The notes under the pieces were generated by a model, which saw only the letters and a program-made list of their open reading frames with translations, was not told where the DNA came from and searched no databases. A stretch of 12,597 nt of DNA, from contig JBHHYO010000076.1 in assembly GCA_046757665.1 (NCBI GenBank), positions 1 to 12,597 of the forward strand, given 5' to 3'. The translations under genes and the position numbers were made by a program. The DNA is from Nitrospinales bacterium. Its GTDB lineage: Bacteria; Nitrospinota; Nitrospinia; Nitrospinales; JAJDAT01. This document shows positions 702 to 10,900 of the stretch, one piece after another (the stretch's first letter is position 1; each line of letters starts with the position of its first letter).

Positions 702-1988
702 ATGAACTATTTGAAAGTATTGATTTTATTATCATTGACGGTGGTTTCGCTGACCGCCGGTTGCGACAAGGAATTAAAGGAACACCCCATGCCCGCTTCC
801 TTGAAACGCCAGATGGAAATGCAAAACGACCCGGAAATTCAAGCCAAAAAAGTTACCGGCACCATCCGGCTGGCCCCGGAACTGGCGGATAAAATGTCAA
901 AAAATTCCACATTATTTATCCTGGCGCGTCCATCTGGCGTGGAATCCGGCCCGCCGATGGCGGTCAAGCGCCTGCGCGGCGTGCAATTTCCCTACGCCTA
1001 CTCCATCGGCCAAATGGATACCATGCTGGAGGGCGTAAATTTCACCGGGAAGGTCAACATCACCGCCCGGCTGGACCAAGACGGCATGGCCCAAGCCGGG
1101 CCAGGGGACATTGAGGGAAAAACAAGCGCCCAGGTGGGTGAGGCAGACAAGAACATCGTTCTCGACCATCTGATACCCGGCGAGCCCGGCGGCGGCCCCG
1201 GCGCGTCCCGCGTGGTGGACAAAGTGATCCCCGCCTTGCTGGCCAAGGCCAAGGGCAAAACCGTTTCCGGAACGGTCACCGCGGATAAAAGCGTTGTTAA
1301 ATCCATCGCCCCGAACTCCATTTTATTTGTAATCCTTCGCAAGATCGGTCAAACCGAAGGCCCTCCCCTGGCGGTGCAATTATATGAAAAGGGCGCACTG
1401 CCCCTGAAATTTACTGTCGGCCAAGATGACGCCGTTTTACCCGACACCTCCGTCGAGGGCAAGGTGGAAGTGATCGCCCGCATCGACCAGGACGGCAATG
1501 CCACGTCCTCGCCCGGCGATATCGAGGGTAGCCGGTACGCCGTCGTTGGCGATCAAAAAGTCAGCATCGTGTTGAACCGGATAGTCGGTCAGTCCGCGTC
1601 GTCTCCGAAAGACCACGCTCCCGGCTTTGTGCCGCCAGTGGGCGAACGCATCGTCTCCGGCGTCATTTCCGTAGCTCCGGGCTTGCAGGAGAAAATTCCG
1701 GACAACGCGGTGCTGTTCATTTTCGCCCGCGGCCAAGGGGTCGAGCAGGGCCCGCCACTGGTCGTCAAGTTGCTCAAGGGAGTCAAGTTCCCCTTCGAGT
1801 TCACCCTGACCCAGGACGATACGATGATGCCGGGCGACGTGTTTGCCGGCGAGGTCACCGTCACCGCGCGCATAGACCAGGACGGTAATGCCGCGCCCTC
1901 GCCGGGTGATCTTGAAGGCAGTGTCAACACCGAAGTCGGCAAGGGCGGCAAAGTGAAAATCGTCCTTAACAACCTGCTCGGCGGCTGA
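702..1988 (+). CDS. Lipoprotein with three tandem CcmI/CycH C-terminal-like (Ig-like) domains
   Basis: RBS GGAGA 691-695. Lipoprotein signal peptide with lipobox LTAG-C21. Three ~110-aa repeats carry the pattern V[ST]G...LF[IV]xxR...GPP[ML]xV...[FL]P...[IT]AR[IL]DQDGxAxxxPGD[IL]EG...IVL[DN], which resembles the periplasmic C-terminal domain of the cytochrome c maturation protein CcmI/CycH. Confidence 0.8.
   Translation: MNYLKVLILLSLTVVSLTAGCDKELKEHPMPASLKRQMEMQNDPEIQAKKVTGTIRLAPELADKMSKNSTLFILARPSGVESGPPMAVKRLRGVQFPYAYSIGQMDTMLEGVNFTGKVNITARLDQDGMAQAGPGDIEGKTSAQVGEADKNIVLDHLIPGEPGGGPGASRVVDKVIPALLAKAKGKTVSGTVTADKSVVKSIAPNSILFVILRKIGQTEGPPLAVQLYEKGALPLKFTVGQDDAVLPDTSVEGKVEVIARIDQDGNATSSPGDIEGSRYAVVGDQKVSIVLNRIVGQSASSPKDHAPGFVPPVGERIVSGVISVAPGLQEKIPDNAVLFIFARGQGVEQGPPLVVKLLKGVKFPFEFTLTQDDTMMPGDVFAGEVTVTARIDQDGNAAPSPGDLEGSVNTEVGKGGKVKIVLNNLLGG
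846..1979 (+). repeat. Intragenic triplicated domain (approx. 846-1175, 1257-1586, 1647-1979)
   Basis: Conserved blocks TARLDQDGMAQAGPGDIEG / IARIDQDGNATSSPGDIEG / TARIDQDGNAAPSPGDLEG, with the domains separated by Pro/Gly-rich linkers. Confidence 0.9.
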
Positions 1989-3906: not shown

Positions 3907-4314
3907 ATGATTCATAAAAAAGGTTTTGTTTTTGTTCTGGCTTTAGCTGTGTCCCTGGCATTTGTCATCCAATCCTCGGCCGATATGGGGGGAGGAATCG
4001 ACAAGCCCGTCGTTTCCGGATGGTTCCTGCAGGAAATGGAAAACGACCGGGTAATACTGGATCCCGGCGATTCCACCCTGTGCAACCGCGATTTCACCGT
4101 CCGCAATGAAAGCCGCGAGATGGCGGAAGTCGGCGTGATTCTGGGTAATGGCGACAACTATGCCTTCCATCAGGTTGCGCCAGGGAAGACTCTGCACTAC
4201 AGCCTGGAGTCCGGTTACGAATCCAGCATCACCGGCGGAATAACGGCCATTGACGAAGCGCGCATCGTCAACACAACCGGCGGCGTCACCCCCCTCAAGG
4301 TGGAGTGCAAGTAA
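3907..4314 (+). CDS. Exported two-cysteine hypothetical protein (family member 1, divergent paralog of the 6837-8215 array)
   Basis: RBS AAGGAG 3893-3898. Sec signal peptide ending QSSA. Motifs ILDPG-x4-C-x2-DF-x-V-x-N, VILGN, IDEARIVN and a near-terminal Cys are shared with the three downstream paralogs. Confidence 0.85.
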   Translation: MIHKKGFVFVLALAVSLAFVIQSSADMGGGIDKPVVSGWFLQEMENDRVILDPGDSTLCNRDFTVRNESREMAEVGVILGNGDNYAFHQVAPGKTLHYSLESGYESSITGGITAIDEARIVNTTGGVTPLKVECK

Positions 4315-4331
4315 CCCGTTTGTTGAACCTC

Positions 4332-4406
4332 AAAAAAGAGCGATCCGCCACCCCAACCTGCCCCGTGTCTGGGAAGCCGGGTTGGGGTGGCGGGCCGACC
4401 TTTTCT
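4332..4406. terminator. Bidirectional intrinsic terminator between convergent genes
   Basis: Perfect 14-bp inverted repeat CCGCCACCCCAACC (4345-4358)/GGTTGGGGTGGCGG (4380-4393), flanked by AAAAAAGAG on the left and CCTTTTCT on the right. Confidence 0.75.
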
Positions 4407-4422
4407 CCGGTTCGGTTTTTCC

Positions 4423-6093
4423 TCAGTTTTGCACCACAGGCGGAGGCAGAATGGGTCTCCGCAGGCGAGGCCCGTGCGCGGCCTGCAATTCCACCTCCGA
4501 AAGAAGAGCGCTCGGCGCAATGGTGCTGACGGGAATGAATCCGGACTCCGCGCCGCAAAAGGCATTGAACGCCGTGTCATCGTCCCCCGCCAGAATCACC
4601 TTGTTGATCATGGCAATCGGCGTACCAACAAACTCCACGCCGCGAACCAGCTCTTCCCTGCCGTCCGGGTACACCTTGTACAAGTACAGCGGTTTGCCCT
4701 TGAACACCTGAAAATCCCGGGAACCGGTTTCCGTTTCGCCGCCGATCATTTTCTTGATCATGATACCGTAAGGCTTGTTCTGTTTCTTGATCTCATCGAT
4801 CAAGTGCTGTTTCAGTTCCCCGGTCGCGACCCTGCGGTGCGAGCGCACTACAGTGTTGCCCATCCGCGCCACGGGAAATCTCAATCCGTCACTGCGGCCG
4901 TGTCCGTTGGTTTTGCCGAAACCGGGCGCCGGGTTGCGGGACAGAAGAAAGTGCTTGAGCACACCGTGGTCGATCAGGACTACCTTTTCGCTACGCTGGC
5001 CCTCGTCGTCAAACAGGTAATGCCCCAACAGGTCCGCTCCCTTGAAACTTTCGAGCCTGGGATCGTCGATCAGCGAAATAAAAGGCGGCAGAATGGGTTT
5101 GCCGATCTTTTTGACGAACGTTTTGCCGTCATTCGCCGTCCGCAGGCGGTCGCCTTCGAGGCGGTGGCCGATGGACTCGTGAAACAGAATCGCCGTCGCT
5201 TCGGGATTAAAAATAGCCGGCCCGACATAAGGGTCCATTTGCGGAGCCTTGCGTAAAGCCGTGATCCCCGCGATCAGCTTGCCGGCTCTCGCGATCAACG
5301 CCTGTTTGGAAGGAACGTGTTCCCGGTTGACGAAATACAACGTGTCCTGATCCTGAATACGCCGCCCGGAGTCCGTTTTTGTCCAGGCTTCCAGCAACAC
5401 CCCGTAGTTCAAGGAGACGCCGCGAATTTTGTTGCCTTCCGAATCCAGGTAGTACCGGATGTAGCGGTCCGCAAACACCGTCACAAGGGATTTTTCGATT
5501 TCCGGGGCTTCCTTGAAGCGGGCCGAGACCTCGCGCGCCAGGTTTTCCCATTCGGACCGGTCAACATTCAACTCCACTATCGGGTCGAAGTGCACCACCG
5601 GAAATTGACCCATTGAAAAATCGGCCAGATCATGATTTTCCACCCCGCTGACCAACCGCCCCTTCTTGCGGAGAAAATTCATCACGGCCTGTTTGTAGCG
5701 CAAATCCGTCTCCTGCCAAATGGCGCGTTTCAGGCCATCCAAGTCATCATCCAGCGGAATAATTTGTTTGACCCGGTTGCGGTGGCTTCCGGCCACGGAG
5801 CTGTCGAACTTGGGGTCGCCCACGCGCACATCCACGAACAAGGTGCGTTTTTTTTCCGCGGTCGATTGAATCAGGGAGCCGAAACTGCCGACGATTTCGA
5901 TACGGTCATGATGCCGTATCTGGTATCGGACGAAATAGGGCGTATCGAAAACATCGATTCGCAATTCCCTGAGAGACCGCCCCATCTCTTCTTCCATGGC
6001 TTGAAAAATGACCTGGGACGACTTGTCCAGCGTCGCGCCCTGGACCGGGACGGACGAAAAAATCAAAATCAGGACTGAAAAAAATCTAATCAT
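4423..6093 (-). CDS. TldD/PmbA-family metalloprotease (catalytic TldD-like) with N-terminal signal peptide
   Basis: Zn motif HESIGH (HExxxH) followed by RLEGDR. Other family motifs: IDDP, FDDEGQ, LIDHGVLKHFL, TNGHGR, ARMGN, LVRG, FCGAESG. The likely start is ATG 6093 (MIRFFSVLILIFSSVPVQGA, signal-peptide-like); the ORF extends to 6144. Confidence 0.9.
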   Translation of the reverse strand: MIRFFSVLILIFSSVPVQGATLDKSSQVIFQAMEEEMGRSLRELRIDVFDTPYFVRYQIRHHDRIEIVGSFGSLIQSTAEKKRTLFVDVRVGDPKFDSSVAGSHRNRVKQIIPLDDDLDGLKRAIWQETDLRYKQAVMNFLRKKGRLVSGVENHDLADFSMGQFPVVHFDPIVELNVDRSEWENLAREVSARFKEAPEIEKSLVTVFADRYIRYYLDSEGNKIRGVSLNYGVLLEAWTKTDSGRRIQDQDTLYFVNREHVPSKQALIARAGKLIAGITALRKAPQMDPYVGPAIFNPEATAILFHESIGHRLEGDRLRTANDGKTFVKKIGKPILPPFISLIDDPRLESFKGADLLGHYLFDDEGQRSEKVVLIDHGVLKHFLLSRNPAPGFGKTNGHGRSDGLRFPVARMGNTVVRSHRRVATGELKQHLIDEIKKQNKPYGIMIKKMIGGETETGSRDFQVFKGKPLYLYKVYPDGREELVRGVEFVGTPIAMINKVILAGDDDTAFNAFCGAESGFIPVSTIAPSALLSEVELQAAHGPRLRRPILPPPVVQN

Positions 6094-6338
6094 CTCTCTG
6101 GTTTGAAACCTCAAGTTGGCCCAGCGGATGTACAAGGTGTTCATCTAAATTCTAAGCGAACTTCAGACACAAAACAAAAGTGTATTCTGAATATCCGGCA
6201 AACTTGTTGCCGCACCCAAACGCCCGGCTTATTAACCTGTTAAAAATCAACAGACTGATTAATCCAAATCGTCCGGCAACCGACACAATCCGCAAAAACC
6301 GGTCCAAGCCTTGACTCATGAAATCATGGAAACCCCGC

Positions 6339-6425
6339 TTGCCGCCGGCAAACACCTGCCGGCCGCAACCGCCGCGGCAATTTCCTGAGCACTCTGAAAT
6401 TATTTCCGAACCCGGGGTTGCCGCG
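6339..6425. other. Two adjacent GC-rich hairpins in the long divergent intergenic region
   Basis: GCCGGCA 6344-6350/TGCCGGC 6357-6363, extended by TTGC/GCAA. CGCGGCAA 6373-6380/TTGCCGCG 6418-6425. Confidence 0.4.
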
Positions 6426-6836
6426 AATCATCTTAAATGTATTACCAGTCATTATTATTTCGGTTCAATAAAAGCGGATTTCGCCAAGATTACTCAACTC
6501 TCAAAAAAGGATGGGAAAAAACCTGCTCGGACAGATTCAGATTCGCCGCCCGTCAGTTCCTCCTCCAGGACTGCCCAATCGGACGGAAGTCGCTTCCAGC
6601 GAATAGATTTTCGATCTACTGGCGTTTTTCCTCTTTGGAGTTTTTACCCTCTTCTCCTGTGTTTGCAAGAAAACAACGGCATTAGGTCGGCGATTCATTC
6701 CGGAAACAAACGTTGATCCCAATCGTTCCTGGCAGGCCCCTGTCCGCGAATCGGCAAACAGTCTCCAGTCTCCTTTTGGCCGGATGGTAATGATTCAGCG
6801 TTTCATATCATTCACCTCATCGAAGGAGCAAGCGCC

Positions 6837-7211
6837 ATGATGAATAAAAAACCGGTTTTCATAATGCTGGCAATTCTTGCGGTTATTGGTTTTACCTTTG
6901 GGCAATCTGCGGCAGACACGGCTTCCGCGGAATTCACCGCCGAGATTTCGATTTTGGAGCCGGGAATGGCCAGTAGCTGTCCCGACGATTTCATGGTCGA
7001 AAACCCCGGCAACGACAAGGCCGAACTCAGAGTGGTCCTCGGAGACAAAGCGTTCAACGAGGAATGGGTCCAGGCAAAAGCGAAAAAACATTACAACCGC
7101 AAAGGAACGCTCTCGCTGGCGAAACTGAAAGGAGAGCAAGTTGCGATCGATGACGTCGCCACCATCATCAACAAGAGCGAAAAGCAAATCCGATTGCATT
7201 GTGCCAGGTGA
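6837..7211 (+). CDS. Exported two-cysteine hypothetical protein (family member 2)
   Basis: RBS AAGGAG 6823-6828. Signal peptide ending QSAA. 66/93 residues identical to member 3 from EFTAEIS to the C-terminus (manual count). Confidence 0.9.
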   Translation: MMNKKPVFIMLAILAVIGFTFGQSAADTASAEFTAEISILEPGMASSCPDDFMVENPGNDKAELRVVLGDKAFNEEWVQAKAKKHYNRKGTLSLAKLKGEQVAIDDVATIINKSEKQIRLHCAR

Positions 7212-7271
7212 TCCGGAAACAAAGATCATGATCCGCGGCTCCTTATTCGGAGGAGCTGCGGGTTAAAATTA
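7208..7271 (+). repeat. Duplicated 3' intergenic segment, copy A, with an 11-bp hairpin
   Basis: GTGATCCGGAAACAAAGATCATGATCCGCGGCTCCTTATTCGGAGGAGCTGCGGGTTAAAATTA aligns with 7739-7802. Stem CCGCGGCTCCT 7233-7243/AGGAGCTGCGG 7251-7261. Confidence 0.8.
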
Positions 7272-7367
7272 ACCGAAGACTTCAGGCGGCATTGCCTGAA
7301 GAAGTAACCCCGGACCAAACTGCTCAATGATCGTGCTTTACCGCTTATTTTGTAAGGAGACATTGTG

Positions 7368-7742
7368 ATGAACAAGAAAATGTTTCTTATTTGTATCCTG
7401 ACCGTCTTTGCAATGGTCGGTTTTACGTTCAACCATTCCTCGGCGCAAACGGCTTTCACGGAATTCAACGCCGAGATTTCGGTTTTGGAAACCGGAATGG
7501 CCGCCAGTTGCCCCGACAACTTCATGGTCGAAAACCCTGGTGGCGACAATGCCAAACTCAAAGTGATCCTCGGCAACGAAGCGTTCAAAGAGGAATGGAT
7601 CCAAGCAAGAACCAAAAAACACTACAACCGCAAAGGAATGCTTTCCCTCGCAAAGTCAAAAGGAAAACAGGTTGTGAACGATGACGTTGCCACCATCATC
7701 AACATGAGTGAAAGAGAGATCCTGTTGCATTGCGGCAAGTGA
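7368..7742 (+). CDS. Exported two-cysteine hypothetical protein (family member 3)
   Basis: RBS AAGGAG 7354-7359, with start at GTG 7365 or ATG 7368. Signal peptide ending HSSA. Recent tandem duplicate of member 2. Confidence 0.9.
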   Translation: MNKKMFLICILTVFAMVGFTFNHSSAQTAFTEFNAEISVLETGMAASCPDNFMVENPGGDNAKLKVILGNEAFKEEWIQARTKKHYNRKGMLSLAKSKGKQVVNDDVATIINMSEREILLHCGK

Positions 7743-7802
7743 TCCGAAAACAAAATCACGATCCGCGGCTCCCTGTTCACAATGGGTCCCGGGTTAAAAT
7801 TA
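7739..7802 (+). repeat. Duplicated 3' intergenic segment, copy B (main hairpin decayed)
   Basis: GTGATCCGAAAACAAAATCACGATCCGCGGCTCCCTGTTCACAATGGGTCCCGGGTTAAAATTA aligns with 7208-7271. Confidence 0.8.
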
Positions 7803-7831
7803 TCGGCGGTTCGCTGAGGAGCAAGACCCAC

Positions 7832-8215
7832 ATGAGACACAACAAAATTCCTTTTTATACCCTGGTCATCCTGATCGCGTTGGGTCTCGGCGCTAACCCT
7901 GCCGCGGCCAACCCGTTGAGGGCGGATCAAGATTCACAGGTCGAAGCGTTGATTTTGGAGCCGGGCACGGCCACGAGTTGCCAACAGGATTTCATCGTCG
8001 AAAATACCGGCGACCAAATGGCACATTTAAAAGTGTTGATCGGCGATGAGGAATACACAAACGACCTCATGCAATCCCGGGAGAAAAGATACTACAGCCT
8101 GAACCGGAGCATCTCCATATCCAGGAACCAGGGGAAAAACGTCACCCCGGATGACGTCGCCACCATCATCAACAAGGACGGCCGCGGCAAATTGCGCTTG
8201 CTCTGTGCGGAATAA
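7832..8215 (+). CDS. Exported two-cysteine hypothetical protein (family member 4, 127 aa)
   Basis: RBS GAGGAG 7816-7821 precedes ATG 7832; the ORF-track start at 7730 overlaps the previous gene. Signal peptide ending PAAA. Motifs ILEPGTATSCQQDFIVEN, DDVATIINK and LRLLC. Confidence 0.9.
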   Translation: MRHNKIPFYTLVILIALGLGANPAAANPLRADQDSQVEALILEPGTATSCQQDFIVENTGDQMAHLKVLIGDEEYTNDLMQSREKRYYSLNRSISISRNQGKNVTPDDVATIINKDGRGKLRLLCAE

Positions 8216-8239
8216 TCCAAACGCCGCGGCAAGCCAACG

Positions 8240-8277
8240 GAAACGGGACCGGAAGACAATACCGCCGGTCCCGTTTC
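8240..8277. terminator. Hairpin between convergent genes (probable terminator)
   Basis: Perfect 13-bp inverted repeat GAAACGGGACCGG (8240-8252)/CCGGTCCCGTTTC (8265-8277) with a 12-nt loop. Confidence 0.65.
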
Positions 8278-8309
8278 AACACAACCTTGTCATGCGTTCC
8301 GCGCCGCCC

Positions 8310-9284
8310 TCAGCGGTTCGCCAACCACCGGGGGTGGCGCTTGACCTGCGCCAGAATCTCATCCAGTTGCCGCTCCAAAATGCTGACCCGCTGGTAAACA
8401 TGAGAAGGAAACTTCAAGCCGGGATAGTACGACCGGACCGGCTGATTGTTGCCGAGCAAGCGGTTGAGGTAAGCCAGCTCCGAAACGATCAGGGAAGCCA
8501 GGTTGTACACATCCCCCGGCGCAACGTCCATGAAGTTTTCCTCCGATTCTCCCTCACTGAGTATGGCCAGTCCCGACCGTTGCGCGATGTCGCGGATGAT
8601 CTCAAAGCATTTGATCAGCCGGCGGTAAACGTCGCTCGGCACCTTGTACCGTTCAAAAGGCGAAGCGCGGGGGACCCGCATCTGTTCCGGCACCTCCGCA
8701 AAGCGGCTCAAAATAAGCGACGCATAACTGATGGCTTGAGTGATTTGACCGTAAACGTCGCTCGGCGAAAACTTGCGTACCAGCATGATGTTGAGCTGGC
8801 GGTTGGCTTGCACAATGGAACGAAAAACGTCCGTCGGCGTCTTGTCGTCCCGGCGCTCCGGCTTGACGCTTGTTTCGGCGATCCCCAATACCTTTTTTAT
8901 GATTTGCAGACGTTCCAGGGCGGCATTCACAACCAGGTACACATGGCTGGGGCGGATTCGCTCGGACGGCACCGCCGGGACGGTCGCTTGCTGGCCCGTC
9001 AATTCCAGGCACAATTGATCGGCTTTTCGATAAAGCGTCAAAGCCTGGAAGAACACTTCCCGCGGCGCGGCATGTTTGACCGCGATCTCCGGCCGCCGCA
9101 TCTTCGGCTTTCCCATTTCGCGGCGGATGAGTTCGATTTCTCCATGCACAACCGCGACATGGGCAAAAACATCCGGCGGCGCAATGTCCCGCCCCGCCGG
9201 GCTCGCACCGTATGCGGGTAAAACGAATAAAACCGATGCCAGTGGAAACCAGAACCGGTTTATGCTCAGCCTGGCCGTTGCCAT
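8310..9284 (-). CDS. Exported hypothetical all-helical repeat protein (8 x P-x-[DEH]-V-[YF])
   Basis: Signal-peptide-like N-terminus (RFWFPLASVLFVLPAYGA). Repeats PPDVF, PREVF, PSHVY, PTDVF, PSDVY, PSDVY, PGDVY and PSHVY each open an amphipathic helix. Confidence 0.85.
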   Translation of the reverse strand: MATARLSINRFWFPLASVLFVLPAYGASPAGRDIAPPDVFAHVAVVHGEIELIRREMGKPKMRRPEIAVKHAAPREVFFQALTLYRKADQLCLELTGQQATVPAVPSERIRPSHVYLVVNAALERLQIIKKVLGIAETSVKPERRDDKTPTDVFRSIVQANRQLNIMLVRKFSPSDVYGQITQAISYASLILSRFAEVPEQMRVPRASPFERYKVPSDVYRRLIKCFEIIRDIAQRSGLAILSEGESEENFMDVAPGDVYNLASLIVSELAYLNRLLGNNQPVRSYYPGLKFPSHVYQRVSILERQLDEILAQVKRHPRWLANR

Positions 9285-9496: not shown

Positions 9497-10900
9497 ATGA
9501 AACCAAAACCGGAAGAAATTTGCCTCAACATTCAATCCTCGTTACTCCGCTCCGGTCTGTTTTCAACCAATGGAAATCATCAGGGTACATGGCGGGTTGC
9601 GCCCGCGCCCTGGTTTTTGTCCGCCGACGAGATTGAATTTTTCTCCGAACTTGGCGGCCACCTCCTCAAGTTTTACCGCACCCTCAACCAGTTTTATTTT
9701 GACAGCCTGAAGGGCAAGTTACCGTCATGGTTCGCCGAATACCTGGACTTGGGCAAACCTCCGGACCTGCTGAATTACGGGCAAATGAACCGGTTCCGCC
9801 GCCGGCTCCCGGGCATCCTGAGACCCGACGTCATCGCCACCGAAGACGGGTTCGCGATCACCGAACTGGACTCCGTGCCGGGCGGGTTTGGGCTACTGGC
9901 TCGCCTCATGTCCCTCTATGGCGAAAGCCATGAAAACATGATCGGCGCCGAACAGGGCGGCATCCCCGAACTGTTTTACCGCATGATCGAATCGACAGCC
10001 GGAAAACCCGGATGTACACTGGCCATCGTCGTCTCCCAGGAATCCCAGGATTACCTCGAGGAAATGAAAGTCCTGGGAACCTTGTTGCGAAAGCGCGGCC
10101 TGCCGGTTTTCGTAGCGCGCCCGCAAGACCTCGTCTTCAGAGAGGACGGCCTGTTTCTTCCCGTCGAGGGCGCCGACACAAGAATCGATGCCGTTTACCG
10201 GTTTTTTGAATTATACGACCTCAAAAATATTCCAAAATCCGAGCTGTTGCTTTACGGCAACAAAAAAGGCGTCGTCACCGTCACCCCGCCCTACAAACCG
10301 TTCCTGGAAGAAAAGCTGGTTTTCGCCCTGTTCCACCATCCTTGCCTGGCGCCGTTTTGGGAAAAATCCCTGGGCCGTGAAACCTTTGCCGCCCTGACTC
10401 ATCTAATTCCTAGCACGTGGATTCTGGATAATCGCGCTCTGCCTCCCCAAGCGGTGATTCCCGGACTCAATATTCGCGGCGTTCCCGTCCGGGAGTGGCG
10501 GGAGTTGCATTCCCTGACCCAGAAGGAACGGGAATTGGTCATCAAAATTTCCGGCTTTTCCCCTTTGTCGTGGGGCGGCCGGGGGGTTACCGTCGGCCAC
10601 GATGTATCGGCGAACGAATGGATGCAGACTTTGCGGGAGCGCCTGGAAAACTTTGAACGCACTCCCGCCGTTTTGCAAACCTTTCGCAAGGGAAAGCGCG
10701 TGACCACCGCCTACTGGTGCCCGCACACCCAATCGCTGAAAGAAATAGAGTGCCGCATCCGGCTGACGCCCTATTATTTCGTGGTGGCAGAAGAGGACGC
10801 CCGGCTGGGGGGAATCCTGGCAACCCTCTGCCCCAAAGATAAAAAGAAAATCCATGGGATGACCGACGCTGTCATGATCCCCTGCGCCGCGAACCCATAG
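9497..10900 (+). CDS. Glutathionylspermidine-synthase / eukaryotic-type glutathione-synthetase-like (circularly permuted ATP-grasp) amide ligase, substrate unknown
   Basis: Motif order matches this fold: LRPDV (RxD), ITELDSVPGGFG (metal-binding ExN-like, here ExD), DAVYRFFE, EEK, VIKISGFSPLSWGGRGV (Lys plus Gly-rich loop), VLQTF and RLTPY. Confidence 0.7.
   Translation: MKPKPEEICLNIQSSLLRSGLFSTNGNHQGTWRVAPAPWFLSADEIEFFSELGGHLLKFYRTLNQFYFDSLKGKLPSWFAEYLDLGKPPDLLNYGQMNRFRRRLPGILRPDVIATEDGFAITELDSVPGGFGLLARLMSLYGESHENMIGAEQGGIPELFYRMIESTAGKPGCTLAIVVSQESQDYLEEMKVLGTLLRKRGLPVFVARPQDLVFREDGLFLPVEGADTRIDAVYRFFELYDLKNIPKSELLLYGNKKGVVTVTPPYKPFLEEKLVFALFHHPCLAPFWEKSLGRETFAALTHLIPSTWILDNRALPPQAVIPGLNIRGVPVREWRELHSLTQKERELVIKISGFSPLSWGGRGVTVGHDVSANEWMQTLRERLENFERTPAVLQTFRKGKRVTTAYWCPHTQSLKEIECRIRLTPYYFVVAEEDARLGGILATLCPKDKKKIHGMTDAVMIPCAANP

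Follow-up and report, generated by a model that had tools for sequence, protein, structure and literature searches.

A lineage-restricted family of small exported proteins with a predicted jelly-roll fold, and its pairing with an exported TldD/PmbA-like peptidase in Nitrospina-type bacteria

Nitrospina-type bacteria carry out a large share of ocean nitrite oxidation, and much of their envelope proteome is unannotated. Several described systems come close to the locus presented here. The known role of TldD/PmbA enzymes is peptide processing in the cytoplasm, and the closed chamber of TldD/TldE from Escherichia coli admits chain ends only when these are unfolded. In the periplasm, small inhibitors such as AprI/Inh, PliG and Ivy block or tune their enzymes. 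According to a report on endospore appendages, Ena subunits are jelly rolls of about 117 residues, encoded as tandem paralogues, with core cysteines in strands B and I and with an N-terminal connector that bears a Cys-Cys motif on which cross-linking relies (bioRxiv 10.1101/2020.08.21.260141). Here we describe contig JBHHYO010000076.1 of a Nitrospinales bacterium, a stretch of 12,597 nucleotides referred to as the window. It contains four paralogous genes for small exported proteins, and the gene for a predicted exported TldD-like peptidase lies between the first and the second of them. What is new is a lineage-specific exported family that can be given a confident predicted fold and a tie to this peptidase.

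Four exported paralogues and the peptidase gene between them

All four paralogues are encoded on the plus strand. Member 1 (m1, 3907-4314) is a protein of 135 residues from subfamily A of the family tree described below, with a signal peptide, an N-terminal SGWF motif and the C-terminal end ...KVECK. Member 2 (m2, 6837-7211, 124 residues) and member 4 (m4, 7832-8215, 127 residues) belong to subfamily B, and member 3 (m3, 7368-7742, 124 residues) is a tandem duplicate of m2. An AGGAG-type ribosome-binding site lies 7-10 nt 5' of each ATG. For m3 there is an in-frame alternative start, GTG at 7365; its ATG at 7368 sits 8 nt after an AAGGAG/GAGGAG-type site. Likewise, the longest reading frame of m4 opens with TTG at 7730, and ATG at 7832 sits 10 nt after a site of this type. 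Each N-terminus begins with a K/R-rich start, followed by a hydrophobic stretch and an SSA, SAA or AAA site around residue 25-26, which we judged by eye to be a Sec-type signal peptide. The mature chains of about 100 residues carry exactly two cysteines each after residue 26; in the core these are found at approximately positions 22 and 96, and the N-terminal extension is free of cysteine. The additional third cysteine of m3 lies within its signal peptide. A first-pass annotation of this DNA had proposed four open reading frames with ribosome-binding sites, Sec-type signal peptides and mature chains of about 100 residues containing exactly two cysteines, and every one of these elements was recovered in all four genes. 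Its consensus motif also fits the four sequences when compared with our alignment.

The degree of relatedness among the paralogues is graded, as the same annotation had stated: m2 and m3 are closest, m4 is further away and m1 is the most distant. In BLASTP comparisons of the mature chains, m2 is 70% identical to m3 (E 3e-54) and 42% identical to m4 (E 3e-28), and m3 and m4 share 39% identity. Identity of m1 to m2 and m4 is 31-33% over 79-86 residues (E 2e-8 for m2; 31% and E 3e-11 for m4), and the alignment of m1 with m3 covers just 23 residues (E 0.45). Failure of m1 to score against a hidden Markov model (HMM) of the other three had been named as evidence against a common family. With an HMM built from m2-m4, m1 scored 29.9 bits (E 2e-11, Z=1). 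The ratio of nonsynonymous to synonymous substitution rates (dN/dS) between m2 and m3 is 0.23, indicating that both are genes under purifying selection. Their duplication unit at the DNA level extends about 65 nt beyond the stop codon. The genome from which the window derives has four copies of the family, all of them in the window.

The gene at 4423-6144 on the minus strand, located between m1 and m2, is convergent with m1 and divergent from m2-m4. It encodes 573 residues with a probable start at M17, a signal peptide, an HExxxH motif at 322-327 and a cysteine at 530. Its C-terminal domain matches PF19289 with E 7.8e-32 and 110.7 bits against a cut-off of 22, and this match above the curated cut-off together with the HExxxH motif assigns the protein to the TldD/PmbA family. 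The NCBIfam models for TldD match far under their cut-off, and the best solved relative, E. coli TldD (5nj5_A, E 2.9e-13), aligns with residues 309-546 only. H322, E323, H327 and C530 are invariant in 13/13 orthologues, all of which also begin with hydrophobic, signal-like N-termini. Judging from its sequence, the gene product is an exported TldD/PmbA-like zinc peptidase. Its position between the paralogues, to which the first-pass annotation had paid no attention, is the strongest clue. Our literature search returned no paper combining Nitrospina with TldD, and the accessible parts of the literature on periplasmic TldD contained nothing relevant.

The peptidase was found in 16 of the 40 relatives searched and thus, including the window's own genome, in 17 of 41 genomes of the order. 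The small-protein family is present in all 17. For 14 of the 17 peptidase copies outside the window, the distance to a family match is no more than 300 bp, and for another two it is no more than 2.2 kb (16/17); the remaining copy is located at a contig edge. Metagenome contigs yielded 22 peptidase loci with 53-89% identity, 18 of them with a family member at a distance of 260 bp or less and one at 1.65 kb. In the other three, the contig end was reached before any neighbour. Some metagenome contigs may be the same DNA as the genomes, so that the two pairing counts are not independent. No family member was found within 3 kb at eight loci of distant peptidase homologues (32-35% identity), and no signal peptide is visible among the readable ones.

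The pairing occurs in different arrangements. Twelve loci contain the block RpoD-DnaG-YqeY-peptidase-family member (subfamily A)-PAS/sigma-54 activator-NamZ. In two genomes (G027 and G023) the peptidase resides at a different locus and adjoins a subfamily-B member, and in G008, as in the window, family members flank it on either side. G020 possesses a second peptidase copy. Moreover, the peptidase-adjacent members fall on either side of the midpoint root of the family tree. As the pairing persists through these rearrangements, we propose that the family and the predicted exported peptidase might be functionally linked, a proposal for which we see the balance as even. In such a link, the small protein might serve as substrate, adaptor or inhibitor.

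Fold, distribution and genomic contexts of the family

None of the four proteins matched a Pfam or NCBIfam entry at E 0.01. When 49 members were compared with Pfam, no family was matched by more than two of them and every match lay far below the cut-off. A family profile searched against PDB sequences gave nothing under E 0.28. Thus, the family is unrecognised by Pfam, NCBIfam and PDB sequences, as the first reading of the DNA had presumed. An AlphaFold2 model of mature m2 based on a 49-row alignment reached a predicted local distance difference test (pLDDT) score of 89.8 and a predicted template modelling (pTM) score of 0.77, and consists of eight strands and one helix. The model of mature m1 (30-row alignment, pLDDT 81.3) has the same eight strands and a loop where m2 has the helix; residues 1-12 of its mature chain are below pLDDT 50. 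The beta-sandwich suggested earlier is thereby borne out in the models of both proteins, and we are confident that the predicted fold class of the family is a small eight-stranded jelly-roll sandwich.

Structural comparisons place the models in this class. For m2, the best Foldseek match was PirA (3x0t, E 1.3e-3, TM score 0.54), and ASRT (2ii7) was matched at TM 0.60. The VIA structure search gave a top Z of 7.4 for m2, where values of Z <8 may reflect merely a common arrangement. With the m1 model, Foldseek placed 3lag on top (E 3e-4, TM 0.48), and the structural list includes PirA (Z 7.5, root-mean-square deviation (rmsd) 2.7 over 81 residues), the nucleoplasmin core (Z 6.8), Ena1C (6.4), Ena1B (6.2), Ena2A (6.0) and PliG (5.9). 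Since all Z values are below 8, we name the fold class and assign no specific relative. Conservation of the cysteine pair, another element of the first-pass annotation, extends across the family: one cysteine is invariant in the 49 sequences, of which at least 90% have the other as well. The columns conserved at this level comprise Cys, Gly, Phe, Asn and Tyr only, with no His or Glu. From the strand order in the models, the two cysteines could meet, and the pair probably pins the C-terminal strand.

Members of the family were detected in 38 of 120 genomes of the phylum Nitrospinota, all of them in four families of the window's order, and in none of 18 genomes from the other five families of the phylum, which lie outside this order. 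Within the order, 23 of 41 genomes carry the family, in 1-5 copies per genome. A profile of the four sequences retrieved 58 matches at E 1e-3 or below from 1.84 billion representative proteins. Five long candidates (P0020, P0050, P0056, P0059 and P0060), which are repeat or low-complexity proteins (DUF11/DUF7507/CARDB or TPR), were dropped as non-members because they align only with the first two or three strands, and P0061 was set aside as an apparent gene-call chimera with endonuclease V. A second search produced 98 clusters. Where these have names, they read 'hypothetical' or 'exported hypothetical protein', and the named clusters come from Nitrospina or Nitrospinaceae with the sole exception of one metagenome-assembled genome labelled KSB1. 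Scanning contigs with the four-sequence alignment revealed no relatives, and a scan with a 9-row alignment revealed four named loci. No paper was found for the accessions WP_005005778, CCQ89409 and M1YG30, and the accessible parts of the literature on Nitrospina proteomes and metaproteomes held nothing relevant. As far as sequence searches can tell, this is a previously undescribed family restricted to one order, the Nitrospina-type marine nitrite oxidisers.

A midpoint-rooted tree of 44 members from 36 loci separates at least five subfamilies, A-E. Clade A (support 100/99), which includes m1, is marked by the WF motif, the sequence ...ARIVN... and an end in C-K/R. Group B comprises m2-m4 and has the signature ...DDVATIIN...HCxE. 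Members of clade C possess a conserved C-terminal tail of 17-18 residues, chains of clade D end at the cysteine, and E is a further group in the tree. The subfamilies also occur beside other genes. In relatives, subfamily-A genes are divergent from the gene of a PAS/sigma-54 activator, and the neighbours of subfamily-C genes are small enzymes. One base is shared between a subfamily-D gene and the start codon of the gene for a CarH/LitR-like regulator with MerR and B12-binding parts (L029, 8082-9457, minus strand; also L041 and L050). In other relatives, the subfamily-D member comes after an exported protein of 231 residues whose N-terminus is rich in His, with the sequence HSDHDHS right after its signal peptide. 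Because subfamilies stand in such exported or regulated contexts, those of the CarH-like light regulator and the PAS/sigma-54 activator, the family resembles condition-induced envelope proteins.

Some further features of these neighbourhoods are worth recording. The locus of subfamily D and the CarH-like regulator is a candidate light-controlled periplasmic operon. Sigma-54 -24/-12-like boxes (e.g. TGGCATACAGGTTGCA; similar to TGGCAT-N5-TTGCA) are found 120-160 nt upstream of subfamily-A genes in L049, L038, L035 and L060, beside the PAS/sigma-54 activator; other loci of the same synteny and the window have no such boxes. Neither the PAS/sigma-54 activator, whose best full-length match has 39% identity, nor YqeY has a clear orthologue in the window's own genome. 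In one lineage (L024, 4418-5605; L081, 2258-3394), a two-repeat protein with two CxxCH heme motifs is encoded between the peptidase gene and the family member.

Possible roles of the small proteins

In the periplasm, the Sec-exported jelly-roll proteins might serve the peptidase encoded between them as its dedicated partners, which implies that the two would physically meet. In the mechanism that we favour, the small protein might insert a flexible tail into the peptidase, either its N-terminal one or, for subfamily C of the relatives, its C-terminal one. The enzyme would then trim the tail back to the putatively disulfide-stapled core, and trimming would mature or switch the small protein. 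Entry by way of a tail is suggested by three points: in TldD/TldE only unfolded ends can reach the enclosed active site, the N-terminal residues of m1 appear disordered, and subfamily C has an extra tail at its C-terminus. As a specific mechanism, tail-trimming is unlikely in our estimate, and a role as non-cleaved plug or adaptor is almost as likely. A predicted complex of peptidase residues 37-573 (13-row alignment) with mature m1 (30-row alignment), run without controls, scored 0.00 compared to a mark of 0.32 and speaks neither for nor against binding.

Several observations weigh against a partnership of this kind. The peptidase and family genes are mostly convergent and not co-transcribed, and their arrangement thus does not imply co-expression. 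All genomes belong to one order, so that adjacency is partly inherited synteny. Six genomes of the order contain the family and no peptidase found with our query (G003, G009, G015, G017, G034 and G035). G009 has one weak partial match (E 0.009), and G015 is a single contig with 97% completeness. Subfamilies C, D and E are located elsewhere, indicating that the basic activity of the family does not require the peptidase. Finally, the N-terminal tail of subfamily A contains the conserved WF motif, which argues for retention of at least some of this tail.

The six genomes without a detected peptidase would suit a reading in which the small proteins are independent periplasmic binding or stress proteins, i.e. 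jelly rolls that bind a ligand, a glycan or a metal, and in which proximity to the peptidase reflects inherited gene order or shared regulation only. The contexts of subfamilies D (CarH-like regulator), A (PAS/sigma-54 activator) and C (small enzymes) point in the same direction, and the structural matches include cupins and carbohydrate-binding modules. However, a minimum of four rearranged contexts retain adjacency to the peptidase, which is also seen in both halves of the tree, and no conserved His or acidic cluster in the 49 sequences marks a metal site. Independence from the peptidase is rather unlikely in our view. Lower still is the probability we give to the idea that the sandwich is a proteinaceous inhibitor or gatekeeper, a plug or adaptor, of the exported peptidase, with other subfamilies binding other envelope enzymes. 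The same genomic pairing applies to it; the proteins are small, exported and probably disulfide-stapled; and PliG (4dzg) is among the structural matches of the m1 model (rmsd 3.1 over 89 residues), albeit with a Z of 5.9 inside the background range. Other subfamilies, too, have exported neighbours in some relatives: the 231-residue signal-peptide protein and a lipoprotein-like alpha/beta hydrolase, the latter in one of the three copies that were read. On the other hand, TldD-type peptidases enclose their active site and do not obviously need a folded inhibitor, as many as four paralogues lie next to one peptidase, and Pfam gave no sequence match to any inhibitor family.

The first-pass annotation had favoured a structural role: the paralogues would build a fibre, a surface layer or a periplasmic oligomer, some as major and others as minor subunits. 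One form of this would be an Ena-like polymer built by beta-sheet augmentation and possibly licensed by peptidase trimming. The predicted fold and the size, which equals that of Ena subunits, are compatible with it, as are the tandem paralogues with one cysteine near either end of the core. Ena1B, Ena2A and Ena1C appear in both structural lists, for the m1 model with Z 6.0-6.4 and rmsd 2.5-2.9 over 73-77 residues and for the m2 model with Z 5.8-6.4, though at an rmsd of about 6; each of these Z values is below 8 and hence at background level. Language-model neighbours of m1 (0.86) and m4 (0.81, 0.79) include clusters in which 23-24% of members carry the PF13157 domain of Enas, but scores under 0.9 are leads only. 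The PF13157 profile is absent from the genome even at E 10 and is not among the Pfam matches of the 49 members at E 1. The N-terminal connector, where Ena cross-linking needs its Cys-Cys motif, has no cysteine, and the window's eight other genes include no recognised usher, chaperone, sortase or secretin. The comparison with pilins and TasA-like proteins drawn earlier, and that with camelysin-type fibre proteins, did not hold either, since there was no Pfam or NCBIfam match and assembly genes were not recognised in the window. Taken together, we consider a fibre, surface layer or oligomer improbable. More remote again is a full Gram-negative counterpart of Ena-type polymers, in which trimming of a terminal tail by the TldD-like peptidase would turn exported subunits that had been monomeric up to that point into a beta-sheet-augmented envelope or extracellular fibre or lattice with the paralogues as major and minor subunits.

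If the partnership of small protein and peptidase is true, a periplasmic TldD-type enzyme with a dedicated folded partner would widen the supposed roles of this peptidase family. The Ena-like reading, if true, would mean a new assembly route, with a TldD-type peptidase as pilus-maturation enzyme in the main oceanic nitrite oxidisers. Nitrospina-type organisms are sensitive to light and oxygen. The CarH-like light regulator and the PAS/sigma-54 activator among the neighbours of the family point to condition-induced envelope responses. A culturable relative that has homologues of these proteins is Nitrospina gracilis.

Remaining elements of the window and comparison with known systems

Between the convergent m1 and peptidase genes, positions 4345-4393 form a hairpin with a perfect 14-bp stem, an A-run before and a T-run after it. 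The fold of the RNA has an energy of −53.7 kcal/mol (z −4.3), and 0 of 200 shuffled sequences were equally stable. This element is probably a bidirectional terminator. The divergent intergenic region between the peptidase gene and m2 (6145-6836) measures 692 bp and is unique: no second copy was found in the genome, and it is not a copy of a repeat family seen elsewhere there. It has no Rfam match and no good sigma-54 or sigma-70 box. The best sigma-54 matches upstream of the four paralogues reached 6 of 11 with GG/GC fixed, and the counts from sigma-70 and terminator scans were not above those of shuffled sequence.

The eight other genes of the window encode a CycH-Ig lipoprotein, a CDP-alcohol transferase, a Lon N-domain protein, the TldD-like peptidase, two unknowns, a glutaredoxin and KamA. 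The lipoprotein-like protein (702-1988, plus strand, 428 residues) consists solely of CycH Ig-like domains, three in tandem (PF23892, E 4.8e-49). Neither Pfam nor NCBIfam matches an exported protein of 324 residues (8310-9284, minus strand) with a repeated P-[ST]-D-V-[FY] motif. Four paralogues (53-59% identity) are present in the genome, but just 4 of 40 relatives yielded the protein; the plus-strand open reading frame overlapping its gene (8151-9221) looks spurious. A protein of 467 residues (9497-10900, plus strand), also without Pfam or NCBIfam match, is encoded upstream of the genes for glutaredoxin and the lysine-2,3-aminomutase-like radical SAM protein.

Among described proteins, the PirA-type jelly rolls (3x0t, 7fcn) and the small cupin 3lag are the best structural matches and indicate the fold class only. 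Identities are 10-17% at TM scores of about 0.4-0.55, and the family has no PirB-like partner gene. Resemblance to cupins is one of fold (Foldseek E 3e-4 to 1e-2, TM 0.4-0.5), and the conserved His/Glu metal motif is missing from the family. Ena1A, Ena1B and Ena1C (DUF3992/PF13157) of Bacillus endospore appendages likewise have a single domain, an eight-stranded jelly roll of 100-120 residues, along with tandem paralogues and a core cysteine near each end. Aligned with the models for the jelly-roll core (BIDG/CHEF), 7a02 gave Z 6.2-6.4, 9i0y 6.0-6.2 and 9t3p 5.8-6.4, all within the background range. In contrast to Enas, the family has no PF13157 match, a Sec signal, a Gram-negative host and no N-terminal Cys-Cys connector, and the profile search of the PDB listed no Ena chain up to E 10. 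As PF13157 finds nothing and the connector motif is absent, we do not assign the family to the Enas.

PliG and the AprI/Inh inhibitors are exported all-beta proteins of about 100 residues encoded beside the enzyme they serve, which resembles the arrangement described here. They have no sequence relationship to the family, which differs from them also in providing several paralogues per enzyme. With TldD/TldE (PmbA) of E. coli, the neighbouring peptidase shares the C-terminal PF19289 domain, the HExxxH motif and a conserved cysteine, although the alignment is confined to residues 309-546. Owing to its signal peptide, the window peptidase is predicted to be periplasmic rather than cytoplasmic. 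Finally, the window holds no PmbA/TldE-type gene, and the constant neighbour of the peptidase is a small protein with a predicted jelly-roll fold.

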